Shown here piece by piece: positions 1 to 32,784 of a DNA stretch of 40,561 nucleotides. Source of the DNA: a virus (taxonomy: Duplodnaviria > Heunggongvirae > Uroviricota > Caudoviricetes); the IMG/VR virus record IMGVR_UViG_3300023371_000083. The stretch is one strand, 5' to 3'. The first letter of the stretch is position 1. Every line of letters starts with the position of its first letter. The notes under the pieces are model-generated. The model searched no databases. It had not been told where the DNA came from and saw only the letters and a list, made by a program, of their open reading frames with translations. The translations under genes were made by a program, and so were the position numbers.

Positions 1-2584
1 TTTTCGCATCAACTTCAGATCTTAATTCTGTTGCACGATTAAATAAGGTTTGATATGCAATGGATTGTTCCGCAGGATCAATAACAGAAAGTCTTGATGT
101 TAGATCAGAATATTTCGCCTGGTTGGTTATTTTATTCTTTGTTGCATAAGCATCTTGAATTTTATATTTTGTTGCCTATGACTCTACAAATGCCCTCGCA
201 TTTTCATCATAGGTTAATGTTAATTGGTCAATTACACCTTTTTCGTGTTCAAATTCGGCAATAATTGAATTTTCTGTTCTTTTAACAATATTATATCCAC
301 TATCTAAATTATCCGCCCAAGAAGTGAAGATGTTTTCATTTCTACCATTTAAACCATGAACATCATAAAGTTTATTTCCGCCTTTTAATAAGTCTAATAA
401 CTTCTCAGCTCTTTTTAATTCATCATCAGATATATCTGTAATTGCACCATTTGTACGAAGACCGATTGTATCAATTAAAGAGTTTAAACCACGCTTATCA
501 TAATTTACTGAACCATCAGAATTCATTAACGCATGAGCTTCTTTTTGAATTTCACGCATTCTTTTAGAATTTGCTGTATCAGATTTTAGTGATTTCAATA
601 GATTTTTAACATCGGCTTCATCTCTCAATGTATTGAATATATCGTCGGCATCTAAATAGTCCATACGATCTCTAGTTTGATACATTGAGCTTAATTTACT
701 CTGCGCTGTTGTTAACTTTTCTTCGAAAATAGAATCATATACTTCATCAACATTCGCTTGAATAATATTGTCTAACTCAGACATATATCCATAAAGCTTC
801 TTCTCTGATGGCAGATTATTTTTTAATGCCTGTAGAGGTAATTCACCTTCTTTGAATCTTTCTGTATAAACACTTCTACTAAACATCATTCCAGTTTCTC
901 TGTCAAAAGAGATATTTTCAACCTCATCCATTGCTGAATTGAGATGATAGAACAATGTCATATTAGGTGAATCAGAACTTGTTCTTTCCATATATGGCAT
1001 TTTAATATTTTTGCCACGCTCTTCTTTAATGTCCGCTAATTTTCTTGACGCTTCCTCTTCGGTTCTTATTCCTGTTTCAACAATCTGTAATTCTCCAGAA
1101 ACATGTTTTTGAAGCAGTCGAAGATTTTTAAACATAGACTGTTTAATATTATTCAGATTTAAGATTTCTTCTTGTGTTAAAGGGTTGTTAGCTTCTTGAT
1201 TTCTTAAATCAATAAATCCCTGAATTGCAGAATCCTGTGTATCTAAAATACTTTGTAATTCACTAGAAAGAGTTGTACCAGATTTTTTGATTTCATCTCT
1301 GATAGCAAGTGCATTCTGAAGTTCTTTATCAGAAATTACATTCTTAGGGTATTTTTTATCATCAAATGGCTTATTATTTACCTTCTTGGATTTTGATGAA
1401 CGAGAGGTGGAGGTTCCAGAACCACTAGGGGTTCCATCAGGATTTGCTGTTGGATTAGGAATATCTCCAGTCGCATCAATTTCTGCAACAATTTTGTATT
1501 TTCTTGAATTTAATTGTGTTTGAATGTTAGTTAATTCTTCATCAGAAATTTCAACTTTCGGACGAATTACTAGATCCTTTTGAGTATCTACAGTGTCTTC
1601 TATGCCAGAGGCACCAAGTTCTTGCAGTTTCTCATTTAATTTCTTTTTTTCTTGCTCAAGAGCTAAATTTTCTTTGACTAACAACCTTTCGGTTGCTTGA
1701 ATACGATTTTTAATGTGGTTTTCTTGATCTTTAAACATTGATTGAGCTCTCAAGAAAGGCTTAGTATCTTCATTTAAGAATGAGTCACGTTTTAGTTGAC
1801 TCATAACATCTTCATGTTTTTCGACAAAGGCTACTATATCTTGATATGAAGAAATAATTGAATCGTAATATCCACGAGCTTCTCTGTTTAAATCAGCATA
1901 TTGTTGTCTTTCATCCGCTTTGTCTGATGTCTCAAGTAACTTCGCTTTATTATTTAAAGTATCATATCTCTTTATCTTTTTTTCTAAATCACTTAAATAA
2001 CTATCAAATTTTTTCTGAACAGCATCATCGTCTGTAAAATCAAATTGTTCTAAAAACGGATCTTTCTTATCTCTTAATCTTGGTTTGCGTAAATTATTTA
2101 AGCGTGTTTCAAATTCAGCAATATTTCTTTTATATTTATTAATATTTTTTTGAATACCAAGAACATCTGGATCGAACATGCCAGCCATTTCGATTTTTGC
2201 TTCTTTTGCTTGATCAATAATTAAACTGGCCGCATTACAGAATGACACAGCAAGTTCTTCGTATCCACCAGCTTGAGGCATCATTTCTTTTAGGATTCTC
2301 ATTTCGCCTCTAAGTCTGCTAGTAAAATTATCAATACGTTTGTTTAGAGTTTTAAATGTTGTTTCATTTCCAGTGAAAGCATCTTCAATTGATTGTTTGA
2401 TATCTTCAATATCGCCCAATGCATCTCTTTTAAAATTACTAAAGTCCTTCTTTAATTCTTCGAAATCGGGTGCCCCGGCCATAGCAGAAAAGGCTTCCTC
2501 GATTTCTTTGGCTTTCTTATCAATATCCGTCATATCAGCCTTAAATTTAATAAGGACTTCACTTACACTGCTTTGTCTCGCCAA
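1..2584 (-). CDS. Tail tape-measure-like protein, N-terminal part (runs off the window; in-frame TAG at 176-178)
   Basis: Long coiled-coil protein at the end of the tail operon; frame stays open past the TAG (ES*ATKYKIQDAY...) to position 1. Confidence 0.65.
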
Positions 2585-2599
2585 TTATATCACCCCTTG

Positions 2600-3058
2600 T
2601 TAAAATAAATATGCCTAACCAGATTTTTTTGCAACATTAATTGCACGTTGTATGTACATTTCTGGATTAGCAATAATTTCATTTTGTTTATCTATCAATC
2701 TCTCCAAAGGAGATTCAGTAGTAATTTGAGATGTACCATGATAACCCATCATAGCCATAGATAATACATATTCTTTTGGATCTTTATATACTTCCTTCAT
2801 AGGTTCTGCGGAAACCAGTATACCACCTGTGTAAAATTTACCATGAGAATTTTTATAGTATTTAACATAGCCTTTATACAAATTAAAAAATCGGTTATAA
2901 TACACTGGATCATAAGCATTATAAAACATTTCTACAGCAAAATAGTATTCACCAGCAAGAACCTCTCGAACTTGTGTGGCACAGCTTTTACAAATTATAT
3001 CCGCAGCATCATAAATATCTGATATGATGCGATCCTTAATACCAATTTTTTTTGCCAA
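2600..3058 (-). CDS. Phage tail-region hypothetical protein (TAG at 2615-2617 read through)
   Basis: 147-aa ORF continues SG*AYLF to TAA at 2600. Confidence 0.7.
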
Positions 3059-3063
3059 TTACA

Positions 3064-3618
3064 TCACTTTACCTTTTCTGGTTTTAATAACATATTTTGG
3101 ATTTTTGTAAAATTCTTCATAAATTCTTTATTTTTAGCCAATTCATTTGCAATACCAGCGTGTTTTTCAACTACTTCCATTAATCTTGTAATTTGAGATG
3201 CGATGAACACATAATTATCTTTTTCATTTGCATATAAGTCAGATACCACCATTTTAAAAATGGCAGAAAATTCTTCTAAATCTCTGCCGATAGATTCTGT
3301 AATTTTATCAATTAGTCCGGATGCTCTTAGGCTATCATAATCTTCATGTGGACGTTCTTTGCTTACTTGCAAATCAGTATATAAAGAAATCACGGACATA
3401 ATATACATCAGATATTCATTTGGAGAATTATTTAATAACACACCGGAAACTCTGCGGGCATTTGTTTTTACAAGTGTCTCAGAGTGAATAACTTTTACCG
3501 AAAATGGCACATAGGTTTTAATATTAATAGAATTTAACAATTTTGTTTTTTCTACATCCGTTTTAGCAGACTGATATTTATTTACAAATTCCTGTACATT
3601 CATTTTTTTAGATTCCAT
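3064..3618 (-). CDS. Hypothetical phage protein (tail region)
   Basis: Intact 184-aa ORF, tightly packed in the operon. Confidence 0.75.
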   Translation of the reverse strand: MESKKMNVQEFVNKYQSAKTDVEKTKLLNSINIKTYVPFSVKVIHSETLVKTNARRVSGVLLNNSPNEYLMYIMSVISLYTDLQVSKERPHEDYDSLRASGLIDKITESIGRDLEEFSAIFKMVVSDLYANEKDNYVFIASQITRLMEVVEKHAGIANELAKNKEFMKNFTKIQNMLLKPEKVK

Positions 3619-4191
3619 TTATTCCATCTCCTTATATTTTAGGCAAGTTTTATTATTAATATCAGCTTGAATTTTTCCATTCAAAGCATTTTTTAATATA
3701 GAACAATTACGTGCATAACGCTTACAGCCAACACATTTATCAATAAAATTATTTTTTTCTGATATATCATCAAAAATACCAAAGTAAGGGGCATCATATA
3801 TTACAAGTTCAATTCTTGGATTTTTTGAATCATAATATATTCTATCAACACGCTCACAAACAAAATTGTCGTCATCCCAAACAACACGACTTTCAGTGAT
3901 TGAATCCAATAAAAGCTTAAACTAATTATTAGTATCCATATCAATTCTAGGAAAATAGAATATACAATCGACATACAAATGCCTTTCACCATTTCTAAAT
4001 TGCCAGCCTTGTTTTTCCGCTTCCTGTTTCACATAATCAATAAATTGCTTTTTATAATCTATTGATTCTCTTGTTTTATAACTCATCGCCATCTATCTAT
4101 TTCCTTTTTTAACAACCCTATAAGCCAAATAGTGATTAACACTTGGGGGAACAGGGGAGACGAGATATAATTTATCAGTATTCTAACTCAT
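3619..4191 (-). CDS. RusA-like Holliday junction resolvase (3 in-frame TAG: 4183, 4093, 3922)
   Basis: PVPPSVNHY N-terminal motif; DMDTNN*FKLLLDSI catalytic motif; WDDDN...PRIEL. Confidence 0.8.
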
Positions 4192-4405
4192 ACTTACACC
4201 ATCTATCATAAAGGTCTGTCATAAAATCATTCTTTTCATAAACAAAGACCATTTTATTTCTAATTTTACTTGGGCTATAAATTACATCTAAGATATAATC
4301 AACACCGCCATTTGCAAACTATGCAGACACCTGTTGCATATTGCTAATATACCAAACATGCTCTGGATCATATTCTTTTCCGGTAACTCTGCTCTTAACT
4401 AACAT
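4175..4405 (-). CDS. Small hypothetical protein, 76 aa (TAG at 4319-4321)
   Basis: AAGGAG RBS; MLVKSRVTGKEYDPE...QVSA*FANGG...RWCKYELEY, TGA stop; absent from the ORF track. Confidence 0.7.
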
Positions 4406-4421
4406 CCAATTATCTCCTTTC

Positions 4422-4466
4422 AAAAAAAATGGGACACGCAAATAAAATGAATAAGCGTATCCCATT
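4422..4466 (-). terminator. Rho-independent terminator
   Basis: ATGGGATACGC...GCGTGTCCCAT stem followed by a T-run on the minus strand. Confidence 0.65.
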
Positions 4467-4495
4467 AGATTACCTATTCACTATATTTTTTGATT

Positions 4496-4798
4496 TTACT
4501 CAGATTTTGTTTTTTTTGTTCTTTTAGAACCTTTTTTATTAACCATTTCATCAACAGTACATGCAATTTTTTCATTCGCTGTCTCAGATTCAAGTACACT
4601 CAGATCGCAATTCATTAAAGTTTGAATTGCTTCGTCTTCAGAAATGTGTTCAAAATATTTTTGGTTAATTGTTTCAAAAATTGTTTTGCAATTTTCATCA
4701 TGAAAAATAGTTCTCCATGCAGGTTCTTCAACATGACAATTATTGCAATAATGATATTGTTCACCACAAACAATACAAGTTCTATTTGCTTTTGCCAT
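4496..4798 (-). CDS. Small Zn-binding hypothetical protein
   Basis: CxxC...CxxC at the N-terminus; lies directly downstream of the tail tube gene. Confidence 0.7.
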   Translation of the reverse strand: MAKANRTCIVCGEQYHYCNNCHVEEPAWRTIFHDENCKTIFETINQKYFEHISEDEAIQTLMNCDLSVLESETANEKIACTVDEMVNKKGSKRTKKTKSE

Positions 4799-4823
4799 AT
4801 AAATCCCTCACTTTCAAATTAAT

Positions 4824-4847
4824 AAAAGGGGAGGGGTTAACCTCCCC
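4824..4847 (-). terminator. Rho-independent terminator after the tail tube gene
   Basis: GGGGAGG-TTAACC-CCTCCCC-TTTT. Confidence 0.75.
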
Positions 4848-4859
4848 ATAATGGTTTTA

Positions 4860-5651
4860 TTATTCAGCTTCGGGAATAACGATGTTGAACAGAACTTTTT
4901 TCTTATCGCAGTAAGCCTGTTGAGCTTTCATAGAGAAGGGGTGTTTGCCATCTGTTGTGAAGGACAGGTCAACATCAGAACTCAGTTTAGCGTTAGGGAA
5001 AATTACATATGCATATACCAGTGTTGTAGGATCACATACGTCACAACCCAGAACTTCCATGATAAATTTACCAGCTTTAGGGTAATTTACAGCAGAGTTT
5101 GTTACCTGAACAGCAGCAGCAGATTCTGTTTCGTATACTACGAAGAACTGTGTGCCATCTGCAACAGCTTCATTCAGTGTAACTTTCTTAGAAACAGAGT
5201 CGTAAGCAAATTCTGTTACACCAGGAGTGGATGTTGTTAATGTGTATTTCTGACCTGTTGTGCCGTCGCCTCTCAGTTCATAAATTTCAGAAATGGGAGC
5301 TTTAGGTTCTTTTACCAGAGAGAATGTTGCAGATTTTACTTCGCCTGTGAAGAATACGGGAGTTGTAATCTTTGCATCAGCAGAAGCGATTTCTTTTTCT
5401 GTACCCATCTGTGTAGCTAACAGGTTCAGGTCGAAGATAGAGTTGGAAGCAGAGAATTCAGCCTGTTTACCGTTCTGGAATGTCATGATAGGTGTGCCCA
5501 GAGCGTCAACAGCTTCTCTTTCTTCAGATGTACAATTCAGAGAGGGATCTTCGATCTGATTGATGGAATACATAACAGAACCATCTGCTGTGGATAACAT
5601 TACGCCTCTCAGTACGTGGTCAATAACAAAGTTGTTAATATCAAAAGCCAT
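4860..5651 (-). CDS. Probable major tail (tube) protein
   Basis: 263 aa, strong AGGAGG RBS, high-expression codon style, own terminator, position in the morphogenesis operon. Confidence 0.65.
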   Translation of the reverse strand: MAFDINNFVIDHVLRGVMLSTADGSVMYSINQIEDPSLNCTSEEREAVDALGTPIMTFQNGKQAEFSASNSIFDLNLLATQMGTEKEIASADAKITTPVFFTGEVKSATFSLVKEPKAPISEIYELRGDGTTGQKYTLTTSTPGVTEFAYDSVSKKVTLNEAVADGTQFFVVYETESAAAVQVTNSAVNYPKAGKFIMEVLGCDVCDPTTLVYAYVIFPNAKLSSDVDLSFTTDGKHPFSMKAQQAYCDKKKVLFNIVIPEAE

Positions 5652-5672
5652 ATTTGTTCCTCCTTTTGTAAT

Positions 5673-5703
5673 AAAAAAAAGAACACTGTCATTCAGTGCT
5701 CTT
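5673..5703 (-). terminator. Rho-independent terminator
   Basis: GAGCACTG-AATGA-CAGTGTTC followed by T8. Confidence 0.6.
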
Positions 5704-6444
5704 CATCCAATTAAATGCCTCTTTATCTATTTTTGATGTATCAATCATACCGCTGTAACTTCCCTGCAATAGCGCACAGGCACTCTTTTTTTTATTAATT
5801 TGTCTTATACTTTCAAATATTTCATATATCCCGACATTTTGAATGCTTTGGCTATTATATTTACATTCTTCGGTACAAATGAGTGATACAATTGTCGGTA
5901 GTAAAATAGAGGTTTGTTTTTTATCTGCATTTTTAAATTTTTTTTGCCTATCCAGTTCAATCAATTTTCTCTTGGTTAACTCGTTATACGATTTTTCGAT
6001 TTTTGGAATTATACCATGTACTTTTCTAATATAGTCAACGATTACTCTATATAATAATTTATCAATAACAATAGTCGAATCTTTGTTGATTAAAACCGGC
6101 TCTCCAGTAACTTTATCCACTGCAGGATCAAAACTGGATATATCCAAATTACAAAAAACGAATTTCGAACATTCTTCTGATAAAGTTCTTGTTAGCATTA
6201 TAAATAATTCAAAATCATCTATTTCTTCATAATCAATTCCCATATCCCAAAGGGTAGACTTCATATCACTTGGAATAGAACATATGGTGTAAATGAAATT
6301 AAAATATTCTTGTTCCCCAAAACTTGCAATTTCTCCAATTCTAGGTTGCTTTATTTTAATCATATTATTTACTTCATAATCCTACCCAAAAAACATTGAG
6401 AGCTCATCAAACTCTCTGACAGATGTCTCTAATGATAAATTCAT
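5689..6444 (-). CDS. Phage morphogenesis hypothetical protein (TAG at 6382-6384)
   Basis: Read-through extends the ORF to an ATG overlapping the upstream TGA (ATGA coupling). Confidence 0.7.
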
Positions 6445-7001
6445 TTACGCACCGTATTATTATAAACTCTACCTTTGTTCATTAAATCGGTTTTGATAAT
6501 TGAATTAGGTGACTGAATTTCATATTTTAATGTTCTGCAAGAATAATATGTATCAGTAACTGATTCTTTGTCCTATATTAATTTCGCCTGTTTTCCAAAT
6601 ATATGCGACCAATTAAAAATATCTTTCACTAAGTAGGCTAATAAATCATGTCTTGCAATACCATATTTTGTATTGATATTTTGTGATTCGCAGAAAATCA
6701 CAAAAGTAATGTTTGCTATTTTCATAGCATTGTTATGATAAGAATCCTCAACCAAATCAACTTGAAAACAAATATAATTTTTAACTTGATATTGAATATC
6801 TGGAATTCTTACAAACGGTAAAATACTTACTCCAATATATTCTTCTGGAGCATCCTCATCCAAATCAGGTGTTTCTAAAACATGGATGATTTCTGGAGAA
6901 TTGTATAGCTCTTCTTTAATGATTTCTTTAATGCGAATATTTTCGTCATTCACATTCTCACGTAAAGCAAACAATTTTGCTTCTTGCTCTTTAGTCATCA
7001 T
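6441..7001 (-). CDS. Putative tail terminator/neck protein (TAG at 6573-6575)
   Basis: Continues KLI*DKESVTDTYYSCRTLKYE... to TGA, exactly filling the gap to the next gene. Confidence 0.65.
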
Positions 7002-8101
7002 AAGCTAACCACCTCCAATTTGAATTTTTCGCATAATGAAGATCCATTAGCGTCAACAATATATATTTCTAAAACCTTTCCGACAAAATCATAACTTTCA
7101 GTTTTTATCGAAATTTTTGTTGGTTCTAAAAATTCAATATTAAAATCATTTGAAACATCTACACCGTCACACTCTATAATCCAATCAAACTGATCAATTA
7201 CATCATCAACAAATTCTACATAAAGTTTTTTTGCAACATTAGGGACTTTTATTGATGGAACTGTGCCAATCATTTTTAAGCTGGCTGTAAAAGAGGGTGG
7301 CGCTATATCAGGTTCTTCTAAGGGAATAGCACTTTTATAATAATCGGCATACATTTCCCCAGTTTCTATATTAACGTAATCTTTTTGCTCGTTGAATTTA
7401 TCTTGAGCTATCGTTAATTTATTAATCCCGAAAGGATGAATATTTTCAACTTTCGAAATTTTCCATGTAATAGGTTTCTCAATCAAAGCTGAAACAATAA
7501 TTCTATCTCCATAATAAAGCTTAGAACTAATATCATTCATTGGTAGCCAAATTTGATCTTGGTTTTCAACAATTGTTGTTAAATAGTCTGTCCACAAACC
7601 ACTATTGTAAGAGTTTCGCATACGGGCTATTCCCCACATAGAATATTTAATACCATCTAAAATCCATTTGAATTCATAATTGCATGGCAATACACTGTGT
7701 TTAACAAATTGTTGTTCTCTATCAGAAGAGCAAATCATCCATTTATGATAAATACCTTGTGCATCCGGAATATCAATATATAAACCGATAGGATAATCAG
7801 CATTGTATAATTTATTATATTCTTCATAATAGTCTAGAGGGCATTCACTCATTGGTCTGAACATAATATGATACTCAACTTGGTCTTTGCTTAATGAACC
7901 ATATTGGGTAACAATAAATTTAGCATCAATAGGTGTTTTTTCTCCATCTTTATCATGATAATAATCATAAATATAACATTTTTTACTCTGAATATCTCTG
8001 TCCCAGGTAGCATTCATAATCATATCTGCATTCCGTTTTTGGATTTGTCCAATCTGTTCACTTTGATTTGACAACATATTTTTATATTTCAAAAAATTCA
8101 T
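6998..8101 (-). CDS. Putative head-closure/neck protein
   Basis: Intact 367-aa ORF between head and tail genes; function inferred from position. Confidence 0.6.
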   Translation of the reverse strand: MNFLKYKNMLSNQSEQIGQIQKRNADMIMNATWDRDIQSKKCYIYDYYHDKDGEKTPIDAKFIVTQYGSLSKDQVEYHIMFRPMSECPLDYYEEYNKLYNADYPIGLYIDIPDAQGIYHKWMICSSDREQQFVKHSVLPCNYEFKWILDGIKYSMWGIARMRNSYNSGLWTDYLTTIVENQDQIWLPMNDISSKLYYGDRIIVSALIEKPITWKISKVENIHPFGINKLTIAQDKFNEQKDYVNIETGEMYADYYKSAIPLEEPDIAPPSFTASLKMIGTVPSIKVPNVAKKLYVEFVDDVIDQFDWIIECDGVDVSNDFNIEFLEPTKISIKTESYDFVGKVLEIYIVDANGSSLCEKFKLEVVSL

Positions 8102-8415
8102 TAATCTCCCTCCTTGATTTTGTCAATCAGGGAATGAGAATCTAAAATTAATTTTCTATATTTTTTAAAATCACAATCTTTTTTATTGGCTTCTTTTCGT
8201 GCTGTTTCTAATAAACTAATTAAAGTTACTAATTCTGGAGGATTGAATAATATATCATTCATCCCAGAAATTCTCCATAACAATGTCTCAAAATAATAAT
8301 CTAATTGTGGATAATTTTCTTCTTTATATATTAATAACCAATGGATAGAATTGTGTAATGAGCGTTTTTGCTCTTTGATTTGATCACTATTAAAAGTGCC
8401 ATATAAATGTTCCAT
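8101..8415 (-). CDS. Hypothetical phage protein
   Basis: 104-aa ORF, TAATG-coupled to both neighbours. Confidence 0.7.
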   Translation of the reverse strand: MEHLYGTFNSDQIKEQKRSLHNSIHWLLIYKEENYPQLDYYFETLLWRISGMNDILFNPPELVTLISLLETARKEANKKDCDFKKYRKLILDSHSLIDKIKEGD

Positions 8416-8879
8416 TATTCTTCACCATTAATCTAAGAATTAGCAATATATCCACGATCACGAATCATTTTTCTGAGCTCGACCTTGCAGTCTTTTAGTA
8501 AACTTTTAAGTTCGCTAAGATGCGCTGCCTGAGAATAAAATTTTTCTTCTTTACCACCGAACATTTGTAGCGTATGTAATACTGATTTTACTTGTGGTTC
8601 TAACCACTGAATAACCATTCCGATGGCTAAAATGTTTGTAACATAATCAATATCACCATTTTTAAAAATTTCATTTTTTAGTTCGTATGTTAAAGTCAAA
8701 ATTTCATCATCAAATGTTATTGAAGAAAAAATTTTAGAAATATAAGGTACTGCAACAGCAGAATGTAAATAGCCTTTCATCATTTCGTAAGCATCATTAG
8801 GATTCAATGATGCAAAGTTGTAATCTGTGATTTTAAGTAAAAATTTTGAGTAGATGTCATCATATAGAACGCTGTTCAC
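8415..8879 (-). CDS. Putative head-tail adaptor (TAG at 8433-8435)
   Basis: Ends IANS*INGEE-TAA, with the TAA overlapping the next ATG. Confidence 0.65.
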
Positions 8880-8893
8880 TCAATCACCGCCAC

Positions 8894-9475
8894 TCATCTA
8901 ATTAGGCACATTAAATCAGAACCAAGAATAGAGTCAACTGTTTTAATTTTTGTAATAGAATCAAAAGTGCCGTTTTCAACTCTTTCTGTGATTACAGTTT
9001 TCAGAGTATTTTGCATACTTTTAGGAACTTGTTTTAAAGCTTCTGAAAACTGAGCGTTAGGAAGATTTAGGATTTCATCAATATCCTGTTTTGTAAACGC
9101 ATTATCATATACAGCTTTTACTTTTTCCCATCCCTTAGAATCAATCAGATTATTATCTTCAATAATAAATCTAGGTTTAAACAGATAATTTGAGCGACTA
9201 TCTCTCATATATACAAGATCTTCATATCTAACATTTTCTGTATAACCATGATTTGCCCATTTATAAAGAATGCCGCTTTTTTTAGCAGAACAAAATAACT
9301 CACCAGCTGTCACAGAACGACAGGGGATTAGATCATCTGATTTGTATTCTTTTGCTTTTTTAACACTTTTTTTAGACACAGGAGCCTGTGTAGTTTCTTT
9401 TGTTTCTTCTACAATTACATTTTCAACAGCAACATCTTCAATAGTTGCTGATTTTTTTGCGGGTTTTGTCGCCAT
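8894..9475 (-). CDS. Hypothetical virion-assembly protein downstream of the capsid gene
   Basis: 193-aa ORF with AGGAGG RBS. Confidence 0.7.
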   Translation of the reverse strand: MATKPAKKSATIEDVAVENVIVEETKETTQAPVSKKSVKKAKEYKSDDLIPCRSVTAGELFCSAKKSGILYKWANHGYTENVRYEDLVYMRDSRSNYLFKPRFIIEDNNLIDSKGWEKVKAVYDNAFTKQDIDEILNLPNAQFSEALKQVPKSMQNTLKTVITERVENGTFDSITKIKTVDSILGSDLMCLIR

Positions 9476-9501
9476 ATTATTAATCCTCCTATTTTCTCCT
9501 T

Positions 9502-9529
9502 AAAAATAGGGTGCCCAGAAAGGACACCC
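9502..9529 (-). terminator. Terminator after the major capsid gene
   Basis: GGGTGTCC...GGGCACCC-TATTTT. Confidence 0.65.
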
Positions 9530-9548
9530 ATTGTATTTATAAATCAAA

Positions 9549-10625
9549 TTAAGCTTCGATTTCCCATGTACCGAATTTCTTGCCGATAACTGTAGCTACA
9601 CCCAGTTTCTGCTGATATTCAGCTTCAATAGACATATCTCTATTTGTATCTTTATCAGTTACTTCACTCATCTGAGCATCGCCTTCATCGTACAGTTTGA
9701 TGAATTTGTTATCGCCAACGGGCATAATCAGCAGTTTGCTATTATCAACCAGTTTTGTTGTTGTGTCATGAGGAGCGAATGCTTGGGGAATTTCAACCAG
9801 TCTTGTGCCTTCGAAATAACCCAGTCTACCTGTTGTATATCTTTCTTGTTTCATTTCATTAGAAACCCAATCAACTTCAGACATACCATTCAGTTTAGCC
9901 AGAGCAGATTTTGTACCCATGATAACAACTTCTTCACCTGTAGCTGTCTGAACATCTTCAATCAGTGTGATGAATGTGTCTCTCATAGAAGAATTCAGCT
10001 GACCTGTTTTAGCAAACTGAGATGTAGGCATTACTTTATCGCCAGCAGACATAACTGCTGCATATACCATATCGTTTACTTTTTTGTCAAATCCTTCATA
10101 GATTTTCTGAACAAAACCAGCCCAGTCAATTCTGCCAGCCATGAACAGTTCGTATTCAGCATAGATTTTTACACCATACCAGCTTGTTTTAACATTGAAT
10201 GTTTCGCCTTCAGCCAGTTTCTGTCTAATCAGGTTGTGATGATTACCAGACAGTTCGGATACAGTCAGGATACATTCATTAGGTGCATAGAATTCGTTTG
10301 TATCGCCAGCAGCCATAGATTTCATTTCTACGAATTCGTTGAAGAAAGGATTTTCACCCCAACCGGACACCAGCAGATCTGTTACTGTTTCTTCGATTAC
10401 TTCGTAAACTGCAACTTTATTTTTTCTAATTGCTTTTCTCAGTTCTTTTCTTGTGCAACCTTCATCAACACCTAGAACCTGGAACATTACTTCTCTAATT
10501 TTAGCGTTTGTATCTTCTTTAGATTTTTCATAAATGCCTTGAGCAGCATCAAACATCAGGTTTTTAAAACCATTCTATTCAAATGCAACAAATACGTTGT
10601 TTGTGCTATCGTTTGTGAATCTCAT
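9549..10625 (-). CDS. Major capsid protein (TAG at codon 17, 10575-10577)
   Basis: AGGAGG RBS before ATG 10625 (MRFTNDSTNNVFVAFE*NGFKNLMFD); size, codon style and position fit an SPbeta-type MCP. Confidence 0.8.
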
Positions 10626-10655
10626 TATAGTAGTCCTCCTTTCAGCAAGTAATTA

Positions 10656-11123
10656 TCAACCGATTGTCAGTTTTTTGTTAGCAACAGAAACTTTAGCGCC
10701 TTTTGCAACTTCGCCAGAGATTGCTTCTGCAGAAACTTCGAATCTATCATATTTCAGCAGTTCCATACATCTCATAATGTCACCCTGTGCATTGTAGAAA
10801 TTGGATTCATGCTGGCACTGTGTTGTGTATTCTTCATAAATCATAGGAACCTGTGCTACTAACCAGCAATTTTCAGCAGATGCTACGTCAATCAGCCAGT
10901 TACCATTTGCTGTTTTATCAATAATTGTACCAGCGAATGTACCAGCAGCAGCTTCAGCCTATACATCAGGTCTCAGATATTCGCCACAACCAACGATGCA
11001 ACCGTTGTCGATGTCTGCTGTAGCTTCGATGTTGCGGATGTGAGAACCGCCAATTGTAGACAGCAGTTCGCTTGTACCAACAACAGCGTGTTTGTTTTTA
11101 AAGTTTAAAAAATTTGTTGCCAT
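10656..11123 (-). CDS. Putative capsid decoration/cement protein, 155 aa (TAG at 10959-10961)
   Basis: AGGAGG RBS; MATNFLNFKNKHAVV...DIDNGCIVG..YLRPDV*AEAAAG; lies between scaffold and MCP. Confidence 0.7.
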
Positions 11124-11146
11124 TTAAATTTCCTCCTTTTTATAAT

Positions 11147-12973: not shown

Positions 12974-12983
12974 TTATCTCACC

Positions 12984-22187: not shown

Positions 22188-22195
22188 ATGATAAA

Positions 22196-22277
22196 TGAGT
22201 GATACTTGATTCGAACAAGTTCAGCAATTGCAACAGATTTACAGTCTGCCCCGGCTCTCCAACTCCGGCGATCACCC
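22196..22277 (-). tRNA. tRNA-Tyr (GTA)
   Basis: GCAGA-CT GTA AA-TCTGT, long variable arm, A73. Confidence 0.85.
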
Positions 22278-22409
22278 ATATTGGTGGCATGGCTGAGTTT
22301 TTTTAGGGTTTGCTCAAGCGTTGCCAACTGTTCATCCCTACGAGCCTAAAGCCCAATTCACGAGGCTAAACCTCCGAAATACAAACTATCTGTGTTATTA
22401 CCACAGTGA

Positions 22410-25265: not shown

Positions 25266-25355
25266 CGGAGCGAGTGAGGTTCGAACTCACACACGACATC
25301 CCTGCCGCCTAATGGTTTTCAAGACCATCCTCTTAGCCAATTTGAGTATCGCTCC
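25266..25355 (-). tRNA. tRNA-Ser (TGA)
   Basis: ATGGT-CT TGA AA-ACCAT, long variable arm, G73. Confidence 0.9.
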
Positions 25356-26058
25356 AAAATAATTCGTCAAAATTTATTTTTAATTTTTGTTCATCTGGGA
25401 TGTCTCTCCAATATCTCCATAAAAACCCAAATGCTGTTGTGTTTTCACCTCTACGATTACTTAATGAATCGCATATAGCACCACTATTTGGATTTTTATT
25501 AAATCGTCTATTTGCCTCAGATTTACTCTTATAAATAGAGATAATTGAATATGTAAAAGGATCTATTTGACATAAAAAACCACCATTTTCTTTAATTAAT
25601 AAATCTCTACATTCGTCACATGTTAGCCATTTTATATTATGTTTAGCTAAAATTTTTTTGACTGATTTTGGATCTATATTAAAATAACTAGCAGTCCTAC
25701 CTGCAACATATTTTGCAATAGAGCAATGATATTCAATAATTTCATTATCTGTAAATTGAATATATGGTTTTCCATCACCACCAATTGTCGCATTATACCC
25801 ATTAGATCCATATGTGTTTAGCTATTGAATCCAATATTTTTCTCTTGATTCAATATCATCTGTTTCCTCGATTATTTCAAATGAAAAATTGTCTATGCCA
25901 TATTTGTTCATTGCGCTCTACAAAGGACGCTTTTCGCATCTTCTTGTTTTGCTATCTTTTATATGTTCTTTAAAACGGTCATTTGGATTTAAATGATTTG
26001 TTTTGCCAACATATTGTTTTCCATTAATTTTATTAGTGATAACATAAATCTAACCCAA
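25333..26058 (-). CDS. GIY-YIG homing endonuclease A with NUMOD1-like C-terminus (TAG at 26050, 25918, 25822)
   Basis: GGAGG RBS and TTG start; MG*IYVITNKINGKQYVGKT...GYNATIGGDG...TAFGFLWRY; missed by the ORF track; 3' end overlaps tRNA-Ser. Confidence 0.85.
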
Positions 26059-26127
26059 ATTAACGCCTCCAGAAAATACATTATAATCCCCATTTTGTTA
26101 TAGACCTAATGGGCAAGCTGTCTGAAG

Positions 26128-26201
26128 CGGGCAATATGGGATTCGAACCCATGACCTTTCGGTTAACAGCCGAATGCTCTAACCAACTGAGCTAATAACC
26201 C
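26128..26201 (-). tRNA. tRNA-Asn (GTT)
   Basis: TTCGG-CT GTT AA-CCGAA. Confidence 0.9.
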
Positions 26202-26234
26202 GATAATATGATAAAACTATAAATTTTATCATAA

Positions 26235-26885
26235 TTATTTTTTTAAATAAGACCATTTATATCCCTAAGCGTGTTTATTTTTTCCTCTCAAAACTTCATA
26301 TATTGCCGAAGAAGTTCTGCTTTTGCCAAATGCTTCATTGGCGTCTGCGACACTGTTAAACTGCGCAATAATTTCATTACTTTTACAATCAATCTGACAA
26401 ACAATATTTCCACGCTCAGAGATTAATACCTGATTAACTTCATCAGAATTTAAATGATGAATATTATATTTATCTAAAATAGTATTAACGGTTTTGGGAT
26501 CAAGGTGAAAATAACGAGCAGTTCTCGCAGATATATATTTTGCTTCTGTACAATGCTAAATAATTATATCTTGATCACTATAAGGCACATAAGAACGCCC
26601 ATCTCCTCCACGGGTAGCATTATACCCATTCGATCCATAAGTACCGAATTTTTGAATATAATACATTTCTCTATCTTCTGGGGAGTATGTTTCTTCGATT
26701 ATTTCAAAAACAAAATTCTCAACACCATATTTATTAAATGCTCTATAAAGAGGGCGGTTTTTGCAACGATCTTTTTTACTATCTTTTATATGCTGATAAA
26801 ATCTCTCAATAGGATTTGTTTTTTCTGTTTTTCCTATCTATTTTTTACCATTAATTAAATTTGTAATAGAATATATGTAAGCCAA
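26235..26885 (-). CDS. GIY-YIG homing endonuclease B, paralog of A (TAG at 26838, 26556, 26265)
   Basis: AAGGTGG RBS and TTG start; MAYIYSITNLINGKK*IGKT...GYNATRGGDG...HA*GYKWSY. Confidence 0.85.
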
Positions 26886-26910: not shown

Positions 26911-26994
26911 TGGGTTATGAAGGTACTGCCCCTCCCTGGCTACAATAGCAATTGATTTAGAGTCAACCCGGCCTCTTTATCCGTCTAATAACCC
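26911..26994 (-). tRNA. Amber suppressor tRNA (anticodon CTA), tRNA-Tyr-like
   Basis: Perfect 7-bp acceptor GGGTTAT/ATAACCC, A73, GTTGA-CT CTA AA-TCAAT, long variable arm; non-canonical T-loop GGCAGTA. Confidence 0.85.
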
Positions 26995-27514: not shown

Positions 27515-28171
27515 TCACTCCTTGAAAATATCCTCTACATTTGTAACAATTTCATCACAAACACCGAGTTCTTTTGCTTCAGACGCAGAAATAAACCATT
27601 CAGAACCAAATTTTTCATCCATCATCTCTTGTGGAATATTAGTTCTTTTCATAATATAAGCTTCCATTTCTTCCATCTGACGCTGATACTCCAAGATATG
27701 AGCAATAATTTCATCATAAGTTCCTTGAAAATTACCACTGCCTTTATGAATTAAGAAAGTGGCACTAGGCATAGCGTATCTCTTATGGCAAGCAAGATAC
27801 ATCATGCATCCTGCACTATATGCCATACCCATATTTACACCAATTACTGGAGTTTTAGATGTTTCAATCAAATCAATCATTGCATTATTAACATCTAATG
27901 AACCGCCAGGGCTGAAGAACAGTAAATAAATTGGTTTTCTATTTTCAACTGGTAAACCTGTATCATCTTTATTCCACATCATGATATATTTACCAAATTC
28001 AAGAAAGCCATCTGTTACATCCATATCCAGCCAGAGAATACGATTCTCTAGGTTTTTATACTATGTAAGTAATTCTGGAGAGGGGAGCTGTAAATTCTCA
28101 ACATATTTAGGAATTAAAGCTTGAATCAGCTGTTCCTCTGTCATAATTTGTTTTTGATTATTATTATCCAT
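27515..28171 (-). CDS. clpP: ClpP-like peptidase (TAG at 28061-28063)
   Basis: SPGGS, GMAYSAG, FLIH, EAKELG motifs; AAGGAG RBS before ATG 28171. Confidence 0.85.
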
Positions 28172-28247: not shown

Positions 28248-28276
28248 ATTATATCATAGATCGTTTAGATTGTCAA
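28248..28276 (-). promoter_or_regulatory. Consensus sigmaA/sigma70 promoter upstream of clpP-HU-tRNA island
   Basis: TTGACA-17 nt-TATAAT with extended -10 TG and an A-rich UP region. Confidence 0.85.
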
Positions 28277-28419: not shown

Positions 28420-29331
28420 TTATTCAAATTCATCATTTTCTGGTCTGTGGACATTTTTTATACTATCTCGTTGCAAAGCTTTTTGTTTTGTATAATAATT
28501 TTTCCGATAAACAGTATAACAATCACTACATCTCTCGGATCTTGTATCTTTAATGCTTGTCTCAAATAGTTTTCCGCAGTCGATACAAACGATATATTTC
28601 GTAGTAACAGGCGATAACTTAGAGCATTGTTTACAAATCTTAGAATGAGACGAACCTTTGCTTTTTATTTTTTGTTTTGGAAACTTTTCATATTTGCCAC
28701 ATACATTACAGAAGAATCCTTTTCCAGATAAAACCATATACTGATTACCAAGATCAACAAGACTGGTGATAGGGTAGTTTTCTCCATCAGACATAATTTC
28801 AACTTTAATGTTTGTATTACTACATTTAAGTGATAATGAAATTTGTCCAGAATTCTTTAAGTAATGAATTTTAAGCATTTTAGATTTTTTATCACCATTC
28901 ATATTAGCAAGCTTAAATAATTTTACCCAATCCACATTAACCCAGTTTGAGTTCTCTGGTCTGGCAGCATTATACTATTTAGCAAGACATAGACAAGTGA
29001 ACATTAATTTTTCAGCTTGATCGTCACATAAAGATTGTATTTCATCAAGCTCTGAATCACTAATATAAATAGTGTCCACCTCTAATAATGGCTATTTTTT
29101 TGCGTTGTTGATATATTTACAAACAACATCATACCATTCGTCAGAATTATATCCCGAATAGTTTTTCATCATAAATTCATCAATTTTTTGAAGAATGATT
29201 TTCTTTCTATATCCAGAAATATGCCAAAAATATCTGACGAGTAACTGCACTGTGGCTGAAGGCTTCTTGTCAACAATTCCTTGCTCCAGAATTTTTTCAG
29301 CCTATTTTCTTTCATTTAACAATAATTCCAT
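28420..29331 (-). CDS. Conserved hypothetical protein with C-terminal Zn fingers, coupled to the RNAP gene (TAG at 29302, 29092, 28975)
   Basis: Read-through reaches an ATG overlapping the RNAP TGA; four CxxC pairs. Confidence 0.75.
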
Positions 29332-32075
29332 CAAATATCACCTCCCGAAATAACCTTTTCTTTAATTGCAAATCGCTCACCGCAATAAACAATATCACCA
29401 TCGGCATCTTTAGCAGGGTATTTGATTGTCATATTATTTTTTTCAAGCAAATTAGATAGGATAGTGCTACCACATAAATCCCATGCAAATTGTTTAGACT
29501 TGTTATTTGTATAGCAAAGATCAATTACAATATTACATAAGCGTTTTGCATTAGGACAAATTTCATAACATTCTCTAACAAAAATATCTTGAAACATTTG
29601 CCTTGCAACTTTTCTGCTTTCTTCATCTATGTTGTCAACTTTAACATCCTGTGCATACTGTTGAACACGCTTACCATATTCAAGGTATATATTTTTAATT
29701 TTCTCAAATTCATCTGCTGTGTATTCAACATCTGATTTTAAAATAGATGCATCAAATTCTGGATATACATAATCAAAATCTGGATAATGTTCTACTTTAT
29801 GACAAATGCGATTTACAACACAGTCAGTATCAGTAACAGGAATGTTATTATGATAATACATTAGGAATATTTCTTCATCTGTGGTTCTATCATCAGAACT
29901 CAATAAATCATTTAATGATTTCCCAAACGATCCCCAACATTTCATATCACAAGCATTAACATATTTATCATAATCACTTTTCAGATAATCATAATTCTAC
30001 ATGAAGAAATAGGGTTTCTTACACGCTGCCGTTCTCTGATAGATCATCTTCAACTCTTTTACATCATCTGGATCATCATCATTGATACGGTTAACCTTAT
30101 TGTCATACCAGTGTCTAGGCATGGGTTTTGCAATAATCCCTTTTGCTTTATCAATTTGGTTTTGTTGCTCCAACTGCCCACAAATAATACGCTATTGTAG
30201 CACTTCATACTCTGGGCTTCCTTCTGGATACATTGCTTGTAAACAAATCTGAGAAGTAATAATGTTTGTAGTTGAACCGATGGCGTCACCAAAGCTCAAC
30301 TTATTTGAAGTAATTAAATCTTCCTCAGTTGGAATTTTCTTTTCTGCTTTACGCTGAATACACTGAATTACAGGAAGATTTTTTGTATTCCGTAATAAAA
30401 TTTCTGAATTAGTGGTATAAAACATATCGCCATCATGATCACTACCATTTAATGCTTCTGCGGTTGTATCCCAACTGTTTAATAGCATACATGTGGTAAT
30501 CTATTTATACCAATAATCTATTTCTGCGTTTGATACAGGCTTCATTTTTCTGATATTGTATTCAGAAGACATTGGTGCTCTGAAGCAGACAATTTCTTCT
30601 ACATTTCTATCAGACCAGTACTTATGCTAACATTCACCTTTTTTCAAAAGCCCAGTAACTTCTAACCCAAACATATTTTGTGCCAATGAATAAGGATCTC
30701 CGCCGGTAACAGCAAAGTTCGCATCAAGTTTAAGTACACCAATTTTTGCCTGTTTGATTTTTTTCTTTACCATGTGGTAGATTTTGCTTCTGATAAACGG
30801 ATCGTTAATCAGTCTGCTGTCAACCATCAGCGCTTTTGCGAAATCAAAAAAATCATCAGAGAATACATTTTTATCATTAATGCCAAATCCACAAAGGAAC
30901 AGTGCCGACTTTCTCCAATCCATACCCATTACATCACAGATTTCGTCCATAGTAGGTTTGATGAGTGCATCAACTTCTACATCAGAAAGTTTCTAGTTCT
31001 GTAAAAATTGATAATTTGTTTCACGGACGCTATCTAATTCGTAAGGTGTAACTTTAGAAACAGCAAAACTATATCCGTTTTCTATGGTATTAATCCAATA
31101 ATCCTCCCAAGATGAATAATGATCCCATAACTTTAACATTGAAGCAGTCAAAATAACTTCTGCGTCTCTAACATCTCGTTTTGTACCCCAAACATCTATG
31201 ATTTCATATGTTCCTGCAACTTTTTCTGCAAAATCAATAAAATCAAATGTAAAGAGCATTCCTTTAGACCAGGGTAAACCCCTTGTGTTTACGCCAGAAA
31301 TATATTTGCCATATTCTCCACCAAGTTCAATATTCCAACGAAAGGATAAGGAAGGGAGCATAAAACCATACCCATCGCTATCAACCAAGGATATTTCTTG
31401 ATTTTTTAAAAAGGAAAGGGTGGGCTCTTCACCTTCGCTATCATCGACCCGAATGATGTCCTCAAAGAATTTTGTTTCGCAATCCGGCACAACAATAATA
31501 CCATTTGGATTTGATACAGGAATAGATCCACTACAAACCAACGCTTGGTATGCCTCCAGCTTTGCGGGGACAATAGGAATTTCTTTGTTTCTGCCATTGT
31601 CAATTCTTCGCTTTAACTCTGGGTACAAACGCTCACTGACATAAACAATTGTGGAGTTTTTAATACCACCATTTGTGCCAAGTAATCGTTTATACTGAAC
31701 ACCATTAATAGAAAAACCTTTATTGGCTCGATCATAATCAGAATCTCTATCAATAATCAAACACATATAATCTTCTTGAAATTGTGTTTCCTATAAGGCT
31801 TTCTATAGGCGTTTCATGTGTTCTTTATTCTCTTGTGAAGTTTCTTGTCTTCTTAATCTTTTAATTTCGTTTTTTAGCATTTTAGCTTTTGCATCAGTGT
31901 TTACACAGTTCAACTCGTCGATGAACCGTAAAATCTGACTATCAGAAAGAGCGATAACATCTGTTTTGTTCTTTAGTGCTACATCAAGAGGTAGCTCTAA
32001 ATCCCATTTTGCCTTTCTAAGACGGCTGCTATGCAGTTTGTAAATCTACTTATGGCAAGCCTTTTGTTTAGCTAT
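29331..32075 (-). CDS. yonO: YonO-like single-subunit (double-psi beta-barrel) RNA polymerase, ~914 aa, 8 in-frame TAG
   Basis: NGSDHDGD catalytic motif plus DSDGYG, KGML, FRAPM, IDKAKG; fragments joined in one frame; apparent ATA start. Confidence 0.85.
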
Positions 32076-32135
32076 TACTATTCATCCTTTCTACATGTAA
32101 ACCATATCAGTTTAAAAGTACCCCCATTTTTTAGG

Positions 32136-32480
32136 TTTGGCTGGATAATTTTTGCATTTAATTTTTCAGATGAGGAATTCCTTAACTTAAACCAGTTATC
32201 TCAAATTCCTTCCAGTCAAACTCAAAATTCTGGGGTAAAACACCCATTCTAGTCAAAAAGTTACACTGAAAATTTTGTTTAGATGAAAAGTTTTAGGATT
32301 GCCGAATCAAATCAGTGTAACTAGCAACAATGTGAATCCTCAATTTACATATGTTATAATGATTTATTACATGCTAACAATATTTTTTAGTTTGGCTGGA
32401 TAAAAAAATAAATCAACCCCTCAGATGAGGAATTGGTCATCCTTGAGCTGTTACCCTTAAAATTTAGGGTTTGGCTGGGA
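32136..32480. repeat. Imperfect direct repeats upstream of the RNAP gene
   Basis: GTTTGGCTGG three times; TCAGATGAGGAATT twice, at the same distance from a TTTGGCTGGATAA copy. Confidence 0.55.
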
Positions 32481-32511
32481 GATTTTCGGCTAAAAAGGGC
32501 ATTCTGAACAT

Positions 32512-32784
32512 TTAGTTACATTTACGCTGTGCATTTACTGCCAACATCCGTTCAGCTTGCTCTGGCGGAACATCTCTAATCTTACTTCTGATGGTGATTA
32601 ATCTTTTGGGAAACTTATAGGTTTTGCCATAAGCATCCTCTGAGTAAATACTAAATAGGGAAGGGTTGGCTTCGACCAGTTTCTCCATTTTAGTGATCCA
32701 TGTAGTATCAGAACAGTATAGCTATGCATATTCGTCTGTCCGCATTGCGGTGATATGCATTTCTTGTTCATCTTTTTGAACCAT
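32512..32784 (-). CDS. Small hypothetical protein, 90 aa (TAG at 32722-32724)
   Basis: GAGGTGA RBS; MVQKDEQEMHI...DEYA*LYCSDTTWITKMEKL...GKTYKFPKRLITIRSK. Confidence 0.75.

Follow-up and report, generated by a model that had tools for sequence, protein, structure and literature searches.

Gene content of the locus

The window, i.e. the whole stretch of 40,561 nucleotides analysed here, belongs to an SPbeta-like gut phage and carries a minus-strand arm and the start of a plus-strand early arm. Its features are listed below with their in-frame TAG codons and, in several cases, the corresponding codon of a second phage (G001), whose terminase is 79% identical and which is classed as a provirus.

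1..19315, minus: other morphogenesis-arm genes, one TAG each (176, 2615, 4319, 6382, 6573, 8433, 10959, 17743, 19220)
3619..4191, minus: RusA-like resolvase; three TAGs, one common to G001 and two TAT in G001
9549..10625, minus: probable major capsid protein, a label based on size and location (PHROG 4088 carries no name); codon 17 is TAG both here and in G001
11166..12737, minus: probable head protease/scaffold gene, a putative label (PHROG 3313 carries no name); codon 14 is TAG here and TAT in G001, the column being variable in distant relatives
14496..16511, minus: terminase large subunit (PHROG 2); TAG at codons 41 and 236, with a Tyr majority among homologues at both
19564..20790, minus: metallophosphoesterase/exonuclease; two TAGs
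21691..22131, minus: nuclease-like gene (PHROG 5018, unnamed; the PD-(D/E)XK label comes from the preliminary description only); one TAG
22195..22278, minus: ordinary tRNA-Tyr(GUA), one of the 13 ARAGORN-called tRNAs of the phage
25333..26885, minus: two GIY-YIG homing endonucleases inside the tRNA cluster; three TAGs each
26911..26994, minus: candidate amber-suppressor tRNA of the tRNA-Tyr type, anticodon CUA at 26958-26960, read from the sequence
27515..28171, minus: ClpP-like protease; TAG at codon 37, likewise TAG in G001
28248..28276, minus: sigma-70-type promoter of perfect consensus, upstream of the ClpP-like gene, a 114-aa gene, tRNA-Gln and the CUA tRNA
28420..29331, minus: conserved gene downstream of the RNA polymerase; three TAGs, all TAT in G001
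29331..32075, minus: YonO-like single-subunit RNA polymerase (RNAP), 914 aa, probably starting at ATA; eight TAGs, at codons 10, 91, 95, 361, 483, 525, 628 and 693
32512..32784, minus: opening gene of the minus arm; codon 21 is TAG here and TTC (Phe) in G001
34123..40561, plus: start of the early arm, which runs on to about 76,900 (window-extended coordinates); no supported in-frame TAG

Using TBLASTN, the RNAP matched genes annotated yonO and Clostridium and Enterocloster phages at 38-40% identity, these two genera being the hosts of the cultured phages with the nearest RNAP. A close cultured phage was not found. A scan of GTDB for the host returned contigs from MAGs of mixed phyla, pointing to no host, and the bins containing relatives were mixed as well.

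Census of in-frame amber codons

The preliminary description had counted 38 in-frame TAGs in 21 minus-strand genes, and a recount with refined gene starts returned identical numbers (21 of 33 genes, minus strand, 176-32724). Their lowest plus-strand bases are as follows.

176, 2615, 3922, 4093, 4183, 4319, 6382, 6573, 8433, 10575
10959, 12696, 15804, 16389, 17743, 19220, 19759, 20773, 22021, 25822
25918, 26050, 26265, 26556, 26838, 28061, 28975, 29092, 29302, 29997
30192, 30501, 30627, 30993, 31791, 31803, 32046, 32722

The TAG at 7005 follows a ribosome-binding site and precedes the corresponding ATG, and was left out as non-coding. The TAG at 32046 was counted because the RNAP frame begins 54 codons before the first common start. 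No in-frame TAA or TGA was present in the minus-arm genes, and the TAG-bearing genes contained no frameshift. All six TAG-bearing motifs quoted earlier (GIY-YIG, metallophosphoesterase, PD-(D/E)XK, RusA, terminase and RNAP) were found in the sequence. The recoding had been placed across the late arm, where the 38 TAGs do reside; it is nevertheless not limited to this arm, as TAG also occurs in the Sak gene and its preceding neighbour, which belong to a replication module on the plus strand beyond the window. Tyr codons of the minus-arm genes are distributed as 397 TAT, 76 TAC and, if counted as such, 38 TAG (7%). No sequence motif flanking the TAGs was apparent among the 37 sites tabulated.

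As described previously, all 32 complete minus-strand genes end in TAA (20) or TGA (12), which is weak evidence alone because it is partly built in by the read-through. Coverage of the window by ORFs of at least 100 aa rises from 0.671 under code 11 to 0.780 when TAG is read through, compared to 0.724 for a TGA read-through control. On the tiled 82-kb record the gain is modest, about 5 points (0.860 to 0.910).

Residue identity at the amber codons

The residues occupying the TAG positions in homologues were tabulated for 39 sites (the 38 above and Sak), of which 30 had alignment columns and 9 had none. The majority residue was mostly Tyr (19/30) and not Gln (1/30), with a residue other than Tyr at 11/30. 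This miss rate equals that of the TAT/TAC control, for which a Tyr majority was obtained at 227 of 363 codons; CAA/CAG codons gave a Gln majority at 86 of 227. The column log-likelihoods were 0 for Tyr, -24.5 for Phe, -55.2 for Gln and -66.9 for Lys. Within the RNAP, seven of the eight TAG sites have a Tyr majority and the remaining one Leu, at a position where G001 has TAT. The same procedure returned Tyr for G001 (Gln, -30.3) and Gln for the distant relatives L103 and L106, which served as positive controls for Gln; for L100 and L101 the sites were too few to call a residue.

Direct comparison with G001 was also informative. Opposite 28 TAGs of the window phage, G001 displays TAT 17 times, TAC once, TAG 7 times and other codons 3 times, with CAA/CAG in 0/28. 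Conversely, 25 TAGs of G001 face 12 TAT, 3 TAC, 7 TAG and 3 other codons, with CAA/CAG in 1/25. The exchange between TAG and TAT/TAC therefore runs both ways. The ordinary code 15, where TAG encodes Gln, is the usual phage amber code, it is used by L103 and L106, and mischarging of CUA tRNAs with Gln is known; given the column scores, the near absence of Gln codons opposite TAG and the Tyr type of the CUA tRNA, this reading is nonetheless highly improbable for the present phage.

The conservation of TAG between both phages (7/25) is not clearly above a control of four-fold G sites (21/110), so that this comparison does not demonstrate selection on individual TAGs. Within the first 50 codons the figures are 6 of 10 against 3 of 15 for the control, a difference that is suggestive only.

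Strain contigs and related lineages

Contigs of several sequencing runs were compared with the window; X1, a candidate source run, was left out as it covered little of the stretch, and none of the runs listed for the stretch was of RNA. At 30501 and 30627 the contigs of X9 and X10 carry TAT, whereas X8 has TAG at 30627. Over 27354-30428 the X8 contig retains 6/6 TAGs, all of its 29 listed differences falling elsewhere. At the contig level, independently assembled contigs of X7, X8 and X11, which originate from several studies, retain the TAGs.

These data bear on two trivial explanations. A sequencing or assembly artefact, such as base-calling errors at modified bases, could be feared for a single uncultured assembly known at the contig level. 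It has an almost negligible probability, since the independent contigs carry the TAGs, no motif flanks them, and errors would neither spare the early arm nor favour gene starts (see below). Decay of a prophage by nonsense mutation would require one substitution only from TAT or TAC to TAG, and G001 is classed as a provirus. Decay is however extremely unlikely: 38 of 38 stops are TAG, frameshifts are absent, a second lineage has TAGs of its own, strains from several studies retain theirs, and both the 5' bias and the suppressor tRNA would be left unexplained.

Two species-level lineages recoding to Tyr were seen, L001, L043, L044, L056 and L151 constituting a single one. A capsid-based scan returned 15 loci beyond G001, with an internal TAG in none. 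In one phage family, amber is assigned to Tyr in one lineage and to Gln in another, according to a terminase tree that was built as a quick tree.

A tRNA with a CUA anticodon

The CUA tRNA was absent from the preliminary description and was found by reading the sequence directly. It was missed by ARAGORN, using default and relaxed thresholds, and by Rfam (E up to 1). Its acceptor (7/7), anticodon (5/5) and T (5/5) stems are fully paired, and it possesses G1-C72, A73, U35 and a variable region of 15 nt that includes a 4-bp stem. Its T loop (GGCAGUA) is non-canonical, and the D-loop GG has A instead of G at its first position. The minimum free energy fold is the cloverleaf, but with a z of only -0.40, i.e. 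no folding signal above shuffles. Given the odd loops and this folding level, the tRNA may function poorly.

Homologues are present in G001, L043 and L044. In that of G001 the T loop is normal, the T stem contains a U-U mismatch and the variable region measures 16 nt. The acceptor stem is common to the window and G001 tRNAs, whose anticodon stems differ by three double changes and whose D stems differ by one. Their mutual match aside, both resemble tRNA-Tyr(GUA) best among 178 ARAGORN-called phage tRNAs, tRNA-Gln ranking low among the isotypes. The Tyr identity elements named in the available text of PMC9976931 are A73, U35, bacterial G1-C72 and a class II shape. The supF-type set of G1-C72, A73, U35 and a class II long variable arm is found in the CUA tRNAs of both phages; A73 and a long arm are typical of tRNA-Leu too. 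The reading of TAG as Tyr and not Gln, put forward in the preliminary description, is hence supported by the homologue columns, the codon exchange with G001, the TAG-to-TAT changes between strains and this tRNA-Tyr-like CUA tRNA. The phage very probably reads TAG as Tyr.

Further copies of the suppressor were searched in IMG/VR. An acceptor-stem pattern retrieved only G001; a D-loop pattern retrieved G001 and 11 non-tRNA matches; an anticodon-arm pattern retrieved 28 loci, of which four or five were unrelated CUA tRNAs and most were chance hits to coding sequence.

ARAGORN labels the CUA tRNA of G001 'Pyl', and pyrrolysine at TAG was considered; its probability is tiny. The variable loop of tRNA-Pyl is short, as opposed to the 15-16 nt observed here, the Lys log-likelihood is -66.9, and the CUA tRNA of the Gln-recoding L103 receives the same label. 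G1-C72 is common to tRNA-Pyl, and A73, found here in place of the usual G73, occurs in a few of them, as far as described in PMC9976931.

The promoter at 28248..28276 is the sole 12/12 match in 20500-34500, the overall promoter count (68 versus 64.4) being at chance level. It is a candidate promoter for transcription of the suppressor by the host RNAP.

The phage also possesses the ordinary tRNA-Tyr(GUA). Decoding of TAG could be due mainly to near-cognate reading by this tRNA, or to an RF1-disabling factor encoded in the third of the genome that lies beyond the record, with the CUA tRNA in a minor role. The non-canonical T and D loops and the 64% completeness of the genome favour such a scheme. 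Against it, both Tyr-recoding phages retain the CUA tRNA, with compensatory changes; near-cognate reading could hardly cope with the eight TAGs of a single essential gene; and ARAGORN finds CUA tRNAs in none of 94 loci lacking an internal TAG, although these are partial and the program missed the one in the window. The sequenced parts contain no release factor or class Ib synthetase domain (PF00472 is absent from the window phage record, and PF00579 from this record and G001, which are 64% and 45% complete). We regard this scheme as unlikely. A release factor or synthetase, which recoded phages may or may not carry, could be located in the part missing from the 64% complete record.

Placement of the amber codons

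The TAGs are unevenly distributed. In the early arm, supported in-frame TAGs amount to 0 for 768 Tyr codons (86 ORFs) versus 38/511 in the minus arm (p = 3e-16). In the window phage, 18 of 38 TAGs are located within the first 50 codons, compared to 79 of 473 TAT/TAC codons (p = 3e-5); in G001 the figures are 23/53 and 105/756 (p = 6e-7). The two tests have 7 TAG sites in common, and the gene starts of G001 were picked automatically. None of ten other rare-codon classes was significantly enriched at the 5' end.

Three early ORFs end in TAG: one has a TGA two codons further, one lies at a rearrangement junction and one is a shadow ORF. In the 82 kb examined, no confident native gene terminates at a lone TAG, as would be expected if the host bacterium itself read TAG as Tyr and the phage followed the host code. 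About 57 TAGs would then be anticipated among the 768 early Tyr codons, where none is supported; the phage moreover has its own suppressor tRNA, and amber reassignment is stated to be absent from bacteria in the available text of Pfennig et al. A recoded host is therefore very unlikely. The 5' clustering and the TAG-free early arm suggest that suppression is conditional, as opposed to a code of the host. The 5' bias further suggests an ambiguous codon, read as stop or as Tyr, in place of full reassignment.

Proposed mechanism

There is a high probability that TAGs at Tyr positions of middle and late genes are read as Tyr by the CUA tRNA of the phage itself. This tRNA could have originated from the phage tRNA-Tyr(GUA) by a G34-to-C change, as in the laboratory suppressor supF. 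The prediction is that the tyrosyl-tRNA synthetase of the host charges it and that it competes with host release factor 1. The host, probably a clostridium, would use the standard code, so that early genes could be made at once. Host RNA polymerase would transcribe the suppressor from the promoter at 28276, and accumulation of the CUA tRNA would lead to full-length Sak, YonO-like RNAP with its eight TAGs, terminase and capsid. Incomplete suppression would allow TAGs to be tolerated, or even favoured, near gene starts. TAG=Tyr may also operate as a timed switch, whereby a repressor-controlled, host-transcribed tRNA-Tyr(CUA) unlocks sak, the late RNAP and the virion genes, the 5' ambers acting as purposeful gates; this proposal is tentative, with somewhat less than an even chance of being right, and the gate function is its uncertain part.

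Comparison with known systems

NCBI table 29 (Mesodinium) assigns both TAA and TAG to Tyr. It was rejected here, as TAA ends 20 of 32 genes and never occurs in frame. Mgcod's modelled code 101 has TAA=Tyr and, like table 29, differs from the window phage, where TAA is the main stop. UAG is read as Tyr in calcareous sponge mitochondria, as summarized in part of PMC4695839. In these three eukaryotic cases a stop is read as Tyr, as is probable here, but they are not phages.

E. coli supF (su3) is a tRNA-Tyr amber suppressor with a CUA anticodon, charged by the bacterial TyrRS. An RF1-less E. coli reading UAG as Tyr has been engineered (PMC4695839, in the available text). Both are laboratory mutants or engineered strains, whereas the window phage is natural and would depend on its suppressor at dozens of sites.

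The TAG=Gln gut phages (crAss-like, Lak, phAss-1) are similar in several respects, as far as described: in-frame TAG in structural and late genes, early genes compatible with the standard code, a phage-borne CUA tRNA, usually no phage synthetase, and low GC (10.1101/2021.08.26.457843; PMC10607447; PMC11210395; see also PMC9523058). In the window phage, by contrast, the residue is probably Tyr, and TAG is sparse, present in the phage RNA polymerase too, and biased to gene starts. The late operon of SPbeta is transcribed by YonO, according to the available text of PMC5467207, and in the window phage the gene for the YonO-like RNAP likewise lies upstream of those for terminase, portal and capsid. 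Its RNAP is however distant (25% identity to SPbeta YonO), and the RNAP gene itself would need amber suppression.

For phages whose code is unlike that of the host, only TAG-to-Gln and TGA-to-Trp are reported as observed in the available text of Borges et al. (10.1101/2021.08.26.457843). The preliminary description had similarly considered TAG=Tyr as not known from phages. No such phage was found in the papers searched, but Gln is not the sole phage amber code: amber-to-Ser phages with a matching CUA tRNA and RF2 have been published (review PMC4695839, available in part, citing Ivanova et al. 2014). These also combine a non-Gln amber code with a CUA tRNA, differing in residue and tRNA type; RF2 was not found in the 64% complete record of the window phage. 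The window phage likely uses a genetic-code variant, TAG=Tyr, which may be undescribed for phages.

Significance

Phage annotation tools offer Gln for TAG, so that the proteins of such phages would be truncated or mistranslated. The density gain of about 5 points over the record is below the 10% threshold of at least one survey, and such phages can be missed. A TAG=Tyr phage contradicts the idea that phages can recode through the Gln and Trp synthetases alone, and the presence of Tyr and Gln lineages in one family suggests that the residue depends on which tRNA happened to mutate. The 5' bias provides a quantifiable signature of incomplete suppression, which makes the question of why phages recode (regulation versus drift) testable across recoded phages. 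The CUA tRNA, as a predicted natural amber suppressor, can be assayed in a laboratory strain.

Genome context and in-frame TAG codons

The window is part of G000, a linear virus record of 82,047 bases with an estimated completeness of 64%. Its minus-strand arm carries genes for an RNA polymerase, a ClpP-like protease, a tRNA cluster, terminase, portal, head and tail proteins, and the beginning of the plus-strand early arm is also included. For the YonO-like single-subunit polymerase (29331-32075, minus strand), the match is about 25% to genes that carry the annotation yonO in SPbeta-like phages and 38-40% to homologues of Clostridium and Enterocloster phages; according to PMC5467207, YonO transcribes the SPbeta late operon. 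Phage DNA is present in animal faecal and gut metagenome runs, and we infer that the host is probably a clostridium. The minus arm further encodes:

23495-25126, minus strand: RNA-binding protein, PHROG 850

This protein is presumably Ro60/TROVE-like, and its gene is followed by two Y-RNA-like matches (22951-23225, minus strand) scoring below the Rfam gathering score. A tRNA repair set, consisting of RtcB, a tRNA-His guanylyltransferase match and a Pth2-like gene, lies elsewhere in the record.

Gene starts were refined using ribosome-binding sites and homologues. The preliminary description had counted 38 in-frame TAGs in 21 minus-strand genes, and the same count was obtained with the refined starts, among 33 genes whose tyrosine codons amount to 397 TAT, 76 TAC and 38 TAG. 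The TAG at 7005 was left out because it lies between the ribosome-binding site and its ATG, while that at 32046 was included because homologues extend the polymerase frame 54 codons further upstream. The polymerase start codon is probably an ATA at 32075 (minus strand), judging from the AAAGGA preceding it and the homologues that align from there. The phage also encodes a tRNA-Ile with anticodon TAT (21351-21426). Neither an in-frame TAA or TGA in the minus-arm genes nor a sequence motif around the in-frame TAGs was found, and under code 11 just 4166 of 9618 codons precede the first TAG of each gene. Of the 38 TAGs, 7 lie in three nuclease genes that have inserted between tRNA genes (21691-22131, 25333-26058 and 26235-26885, minus strand); these mobile-type genes have therefore adopted the code.

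Assembled contigs from other sequencing runs served as an artefact check. Two contigs of run X8, from a different study and year, span 27354-30428 with 29 substitutions, none of them at the six TAGs located there. Pieces from X7 and X11 are consistent with the window TAGs wherever they overlap. The more divergent contigs of X9 and X10 display TAT at 30501 and 30627, and X8 has TAG at the latter position.

Probable residue at TAG

Protein scans of IMG/VR (three), metagenomes (one) and GTDB (one) supplied the related loci. The resulting 103 loci, many of them redundant, were reduced to 94 reference loci by excluding 9 with internal TAGs. The replication-module gene sak, on the plus strand outside the window, provided a 39th TAG, and 30 of the 39 had columns at a local identity of at least 0.3. 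The reading of TAG as Tyr proposed in the preliminary description was supported: Tyr is the majority residue at 19/30 TAG sites, the same rate as at control TAT/TAC sites (227/363), and Gln at 1/30, versus 86/227 CAA/CAG sites. The majority at the remaining ten is Ser, Gly, Cys, Glu, Val, Thr, Lys or Leu, in mostly thin or variable columns. An empirical likelihood over 20 residues ranked Tyr (0) ahead of Phe (-24.5), Trp (-37.4), Gln (-55.2) and Lys (-66.9). The method does discriminate, because Gln was called for two distant relatives, L103 and L106, in an earlier run with 79 reference loci; two others, L100 and L101, had too few sites for a call in that run. The terminases of these four relatives match at 39-41%. 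For a suppressor of the Gln type, the CUA tRNA of L103 (6958-7045) is unusual in its long variable region.

Recoding is also seen in a second phage (G001, IMGVR_UViG_3300045988_185107), 72% identical to the window in the polymerase and 79% in the terminase: of its 48 automatically called genes, 32 contain TAGs, about 53 in all. In codon alignments excluding the tape measure and hits under 40%, the window TAGs (n=28) stand opposite TAT 17 times, TAC once, TAG 7 times and other codons 3 times; the G001 TAGs (n=25) face 12 TAT, 3 TAC, 7 TAG and 3 other codons. In both directions, TAG therefore behaves as if synonymous with TAT/TAC. The probable lysin gene of G001 (L130:13809-14471) contains two TAGs, both in its second half, and the three putative membrane genes ahead of it (12496-13803) contain none.

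Origin and earlier records of recoding

A quick tree built from 42 terminase rows pairs the window with G001 (SH-aLRT 98) amid relatives without internal TAG and places the Gln-recoding group far from them. The simplest reading of this tree, rooted at midpoint only, would be two separate origins for Tyr and Gln recoding.

The literature considered included Borges et al., PMC10607447, PMC11210395, PMC13037316 and 10.1101/2023.08.07.552389. Mgcod models Tyr for TAA only, and PMC4695839 records phage amber codons read as Ser and as Gln, and, for sponge mitochondria and engineered strains of E. coli, UAG read as Tyr. No phage reading TAG as Tyr was found in the literature searched, which covers main texts, mostly from outside subscription journals; a Tyr case could sit elsewhere. 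The in-frame TAGs are confirmed as an observation and the Tyr interpretation supported; amber recoding in phages is already known, and its variant with Tyr as the residue and a suppressor of Tyr type was not found in print.

Probable suppressor tRNA

The arm contains a tRNA gene missed by both ARAGORN and Rfam:

26911-26994, minus strand: probable suppressor tRNA, an 84-nt cloverleaf flanked by tRNA-Gln and a GIY-YIG gene; anticodon loop CU-CUA-AA

Its acceptor (7/7), anticodon (5/5) and T (5/5) stems are fully paired. G1-C72, A73 and the long variable region (15 nt) agree with bacterial Tyr identity as given in PMC9976931. A homologue occurs in G001 and its near copies L043 and L044; compared with the window copy, its acceptor stem is identical, its anticodon stem has three double changes and its D stem has one. 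Among 178 distinct tRNAs of the fetched loci, the nearest to the suppressors, after each other, are the tRNA-Tyr(GUA) of L044, of L096 and of the window; an uncommon four-base link ahead of the D stem is common to both suppressors and the L044 and L096 Tyr tRNAs. One X10 contig spans the gene with 1 difference somewhere in 171 bases. Against function stand the T loop GGCAGUA and the D-loop GG without its first G, and the fold is no better than shuffles (z -0.40; ordinary tRNA-Tyr -0.87). The unusual T loop coincides with the loss of that G, C56 and the second G being retained; this may possibly represent a compensated elbow, masking the gene from tRNA finders. Rfam also overlooks the ordinary tRNA-Tyr at 22195-22278. 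The sequenced parts of the 64%-complete record yielded neither a release factor nor a class Ib synthetase. Four unrelated phage contigs (L017:10001, L029:10001, L036:2035 and L037:10001) have CUA tRNAs with the same 17-base anticodon arm, and read-through raises the coding density of L017 from 0.34 to 0.73.

Distribution of TAG and proposed mechanism

The early arm, whose 86 ORFs between 33.9 and 76.9 kb contain 768 Tyr codons, has no supported in-frame TAG (p 3e-16, or 7e-13 counting three doubtful cases). Under code 11, TAG terminates three early ORFs, of which one has a TGA two codons on, one lies at a rearrangement junction and one is a shadow ORF. At 37860-38676 (plus strand), an ORF seemingly without its N-terminus, which we take to be ParB-like, overlaps out of frame with a short membrane-protein ORF; this is likely a deletion junction. 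TAG appears again in the replication module, at sak codon 4 and at two codons of the preceding gene, and a near-consensus promoter lies ahead of these genes.

Within genes, 18/38 window TAGs fall in the first 50 codons versus 79/473 TAT/TAC (p 3e-5), a bias matched by 0/20,000 within-gene permutations. The same holds in G001 (23/53 vs 105/756, p 6e-7), the two tests overlapping in seven sites, and no significant 5' enrichment appears in any of ten control codon classes. On general grounds, failed suppression should be more costly late in a gene than early, and the bias therefore fits incomplete suppression; it also fits a deliberate gate. TAG conservation between both phages, 7/25 against 21/110 for the four-fold control and so without a clear excess, does not separate the two.

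A perfect consensus promoter (28276-28248, minus strand) lies upstream of the suppressor. Around it are three copies of an operator-like motif of 17 bp, AAACTAAAAAATATTGT, which recurs at promoters and is present upstream of the polymerase gene and of the replication module as well:

28189-28205, 28276-28292, 28295-28311 and 32377-32393, minus strand: motif, window
38923-38939 and 39145-39161, plus strand: motif, window
45944, 66285, 76938 and 77024: motif, window-extended genome coordinates

The window holds 6 matches versus 0.09 expected, and the record seven exact 14-base cores; the motif is a candidate operator for a repressor or regulator. In the proposed mechanism, the suppressor would be transcribed from this promoter by the host polymerase, charged by the host TyrRS and would then compete with RF1 at TAG. 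Its presence would make Sak, the polymerase (eight TAGs), the terminase and the capsid translatable.
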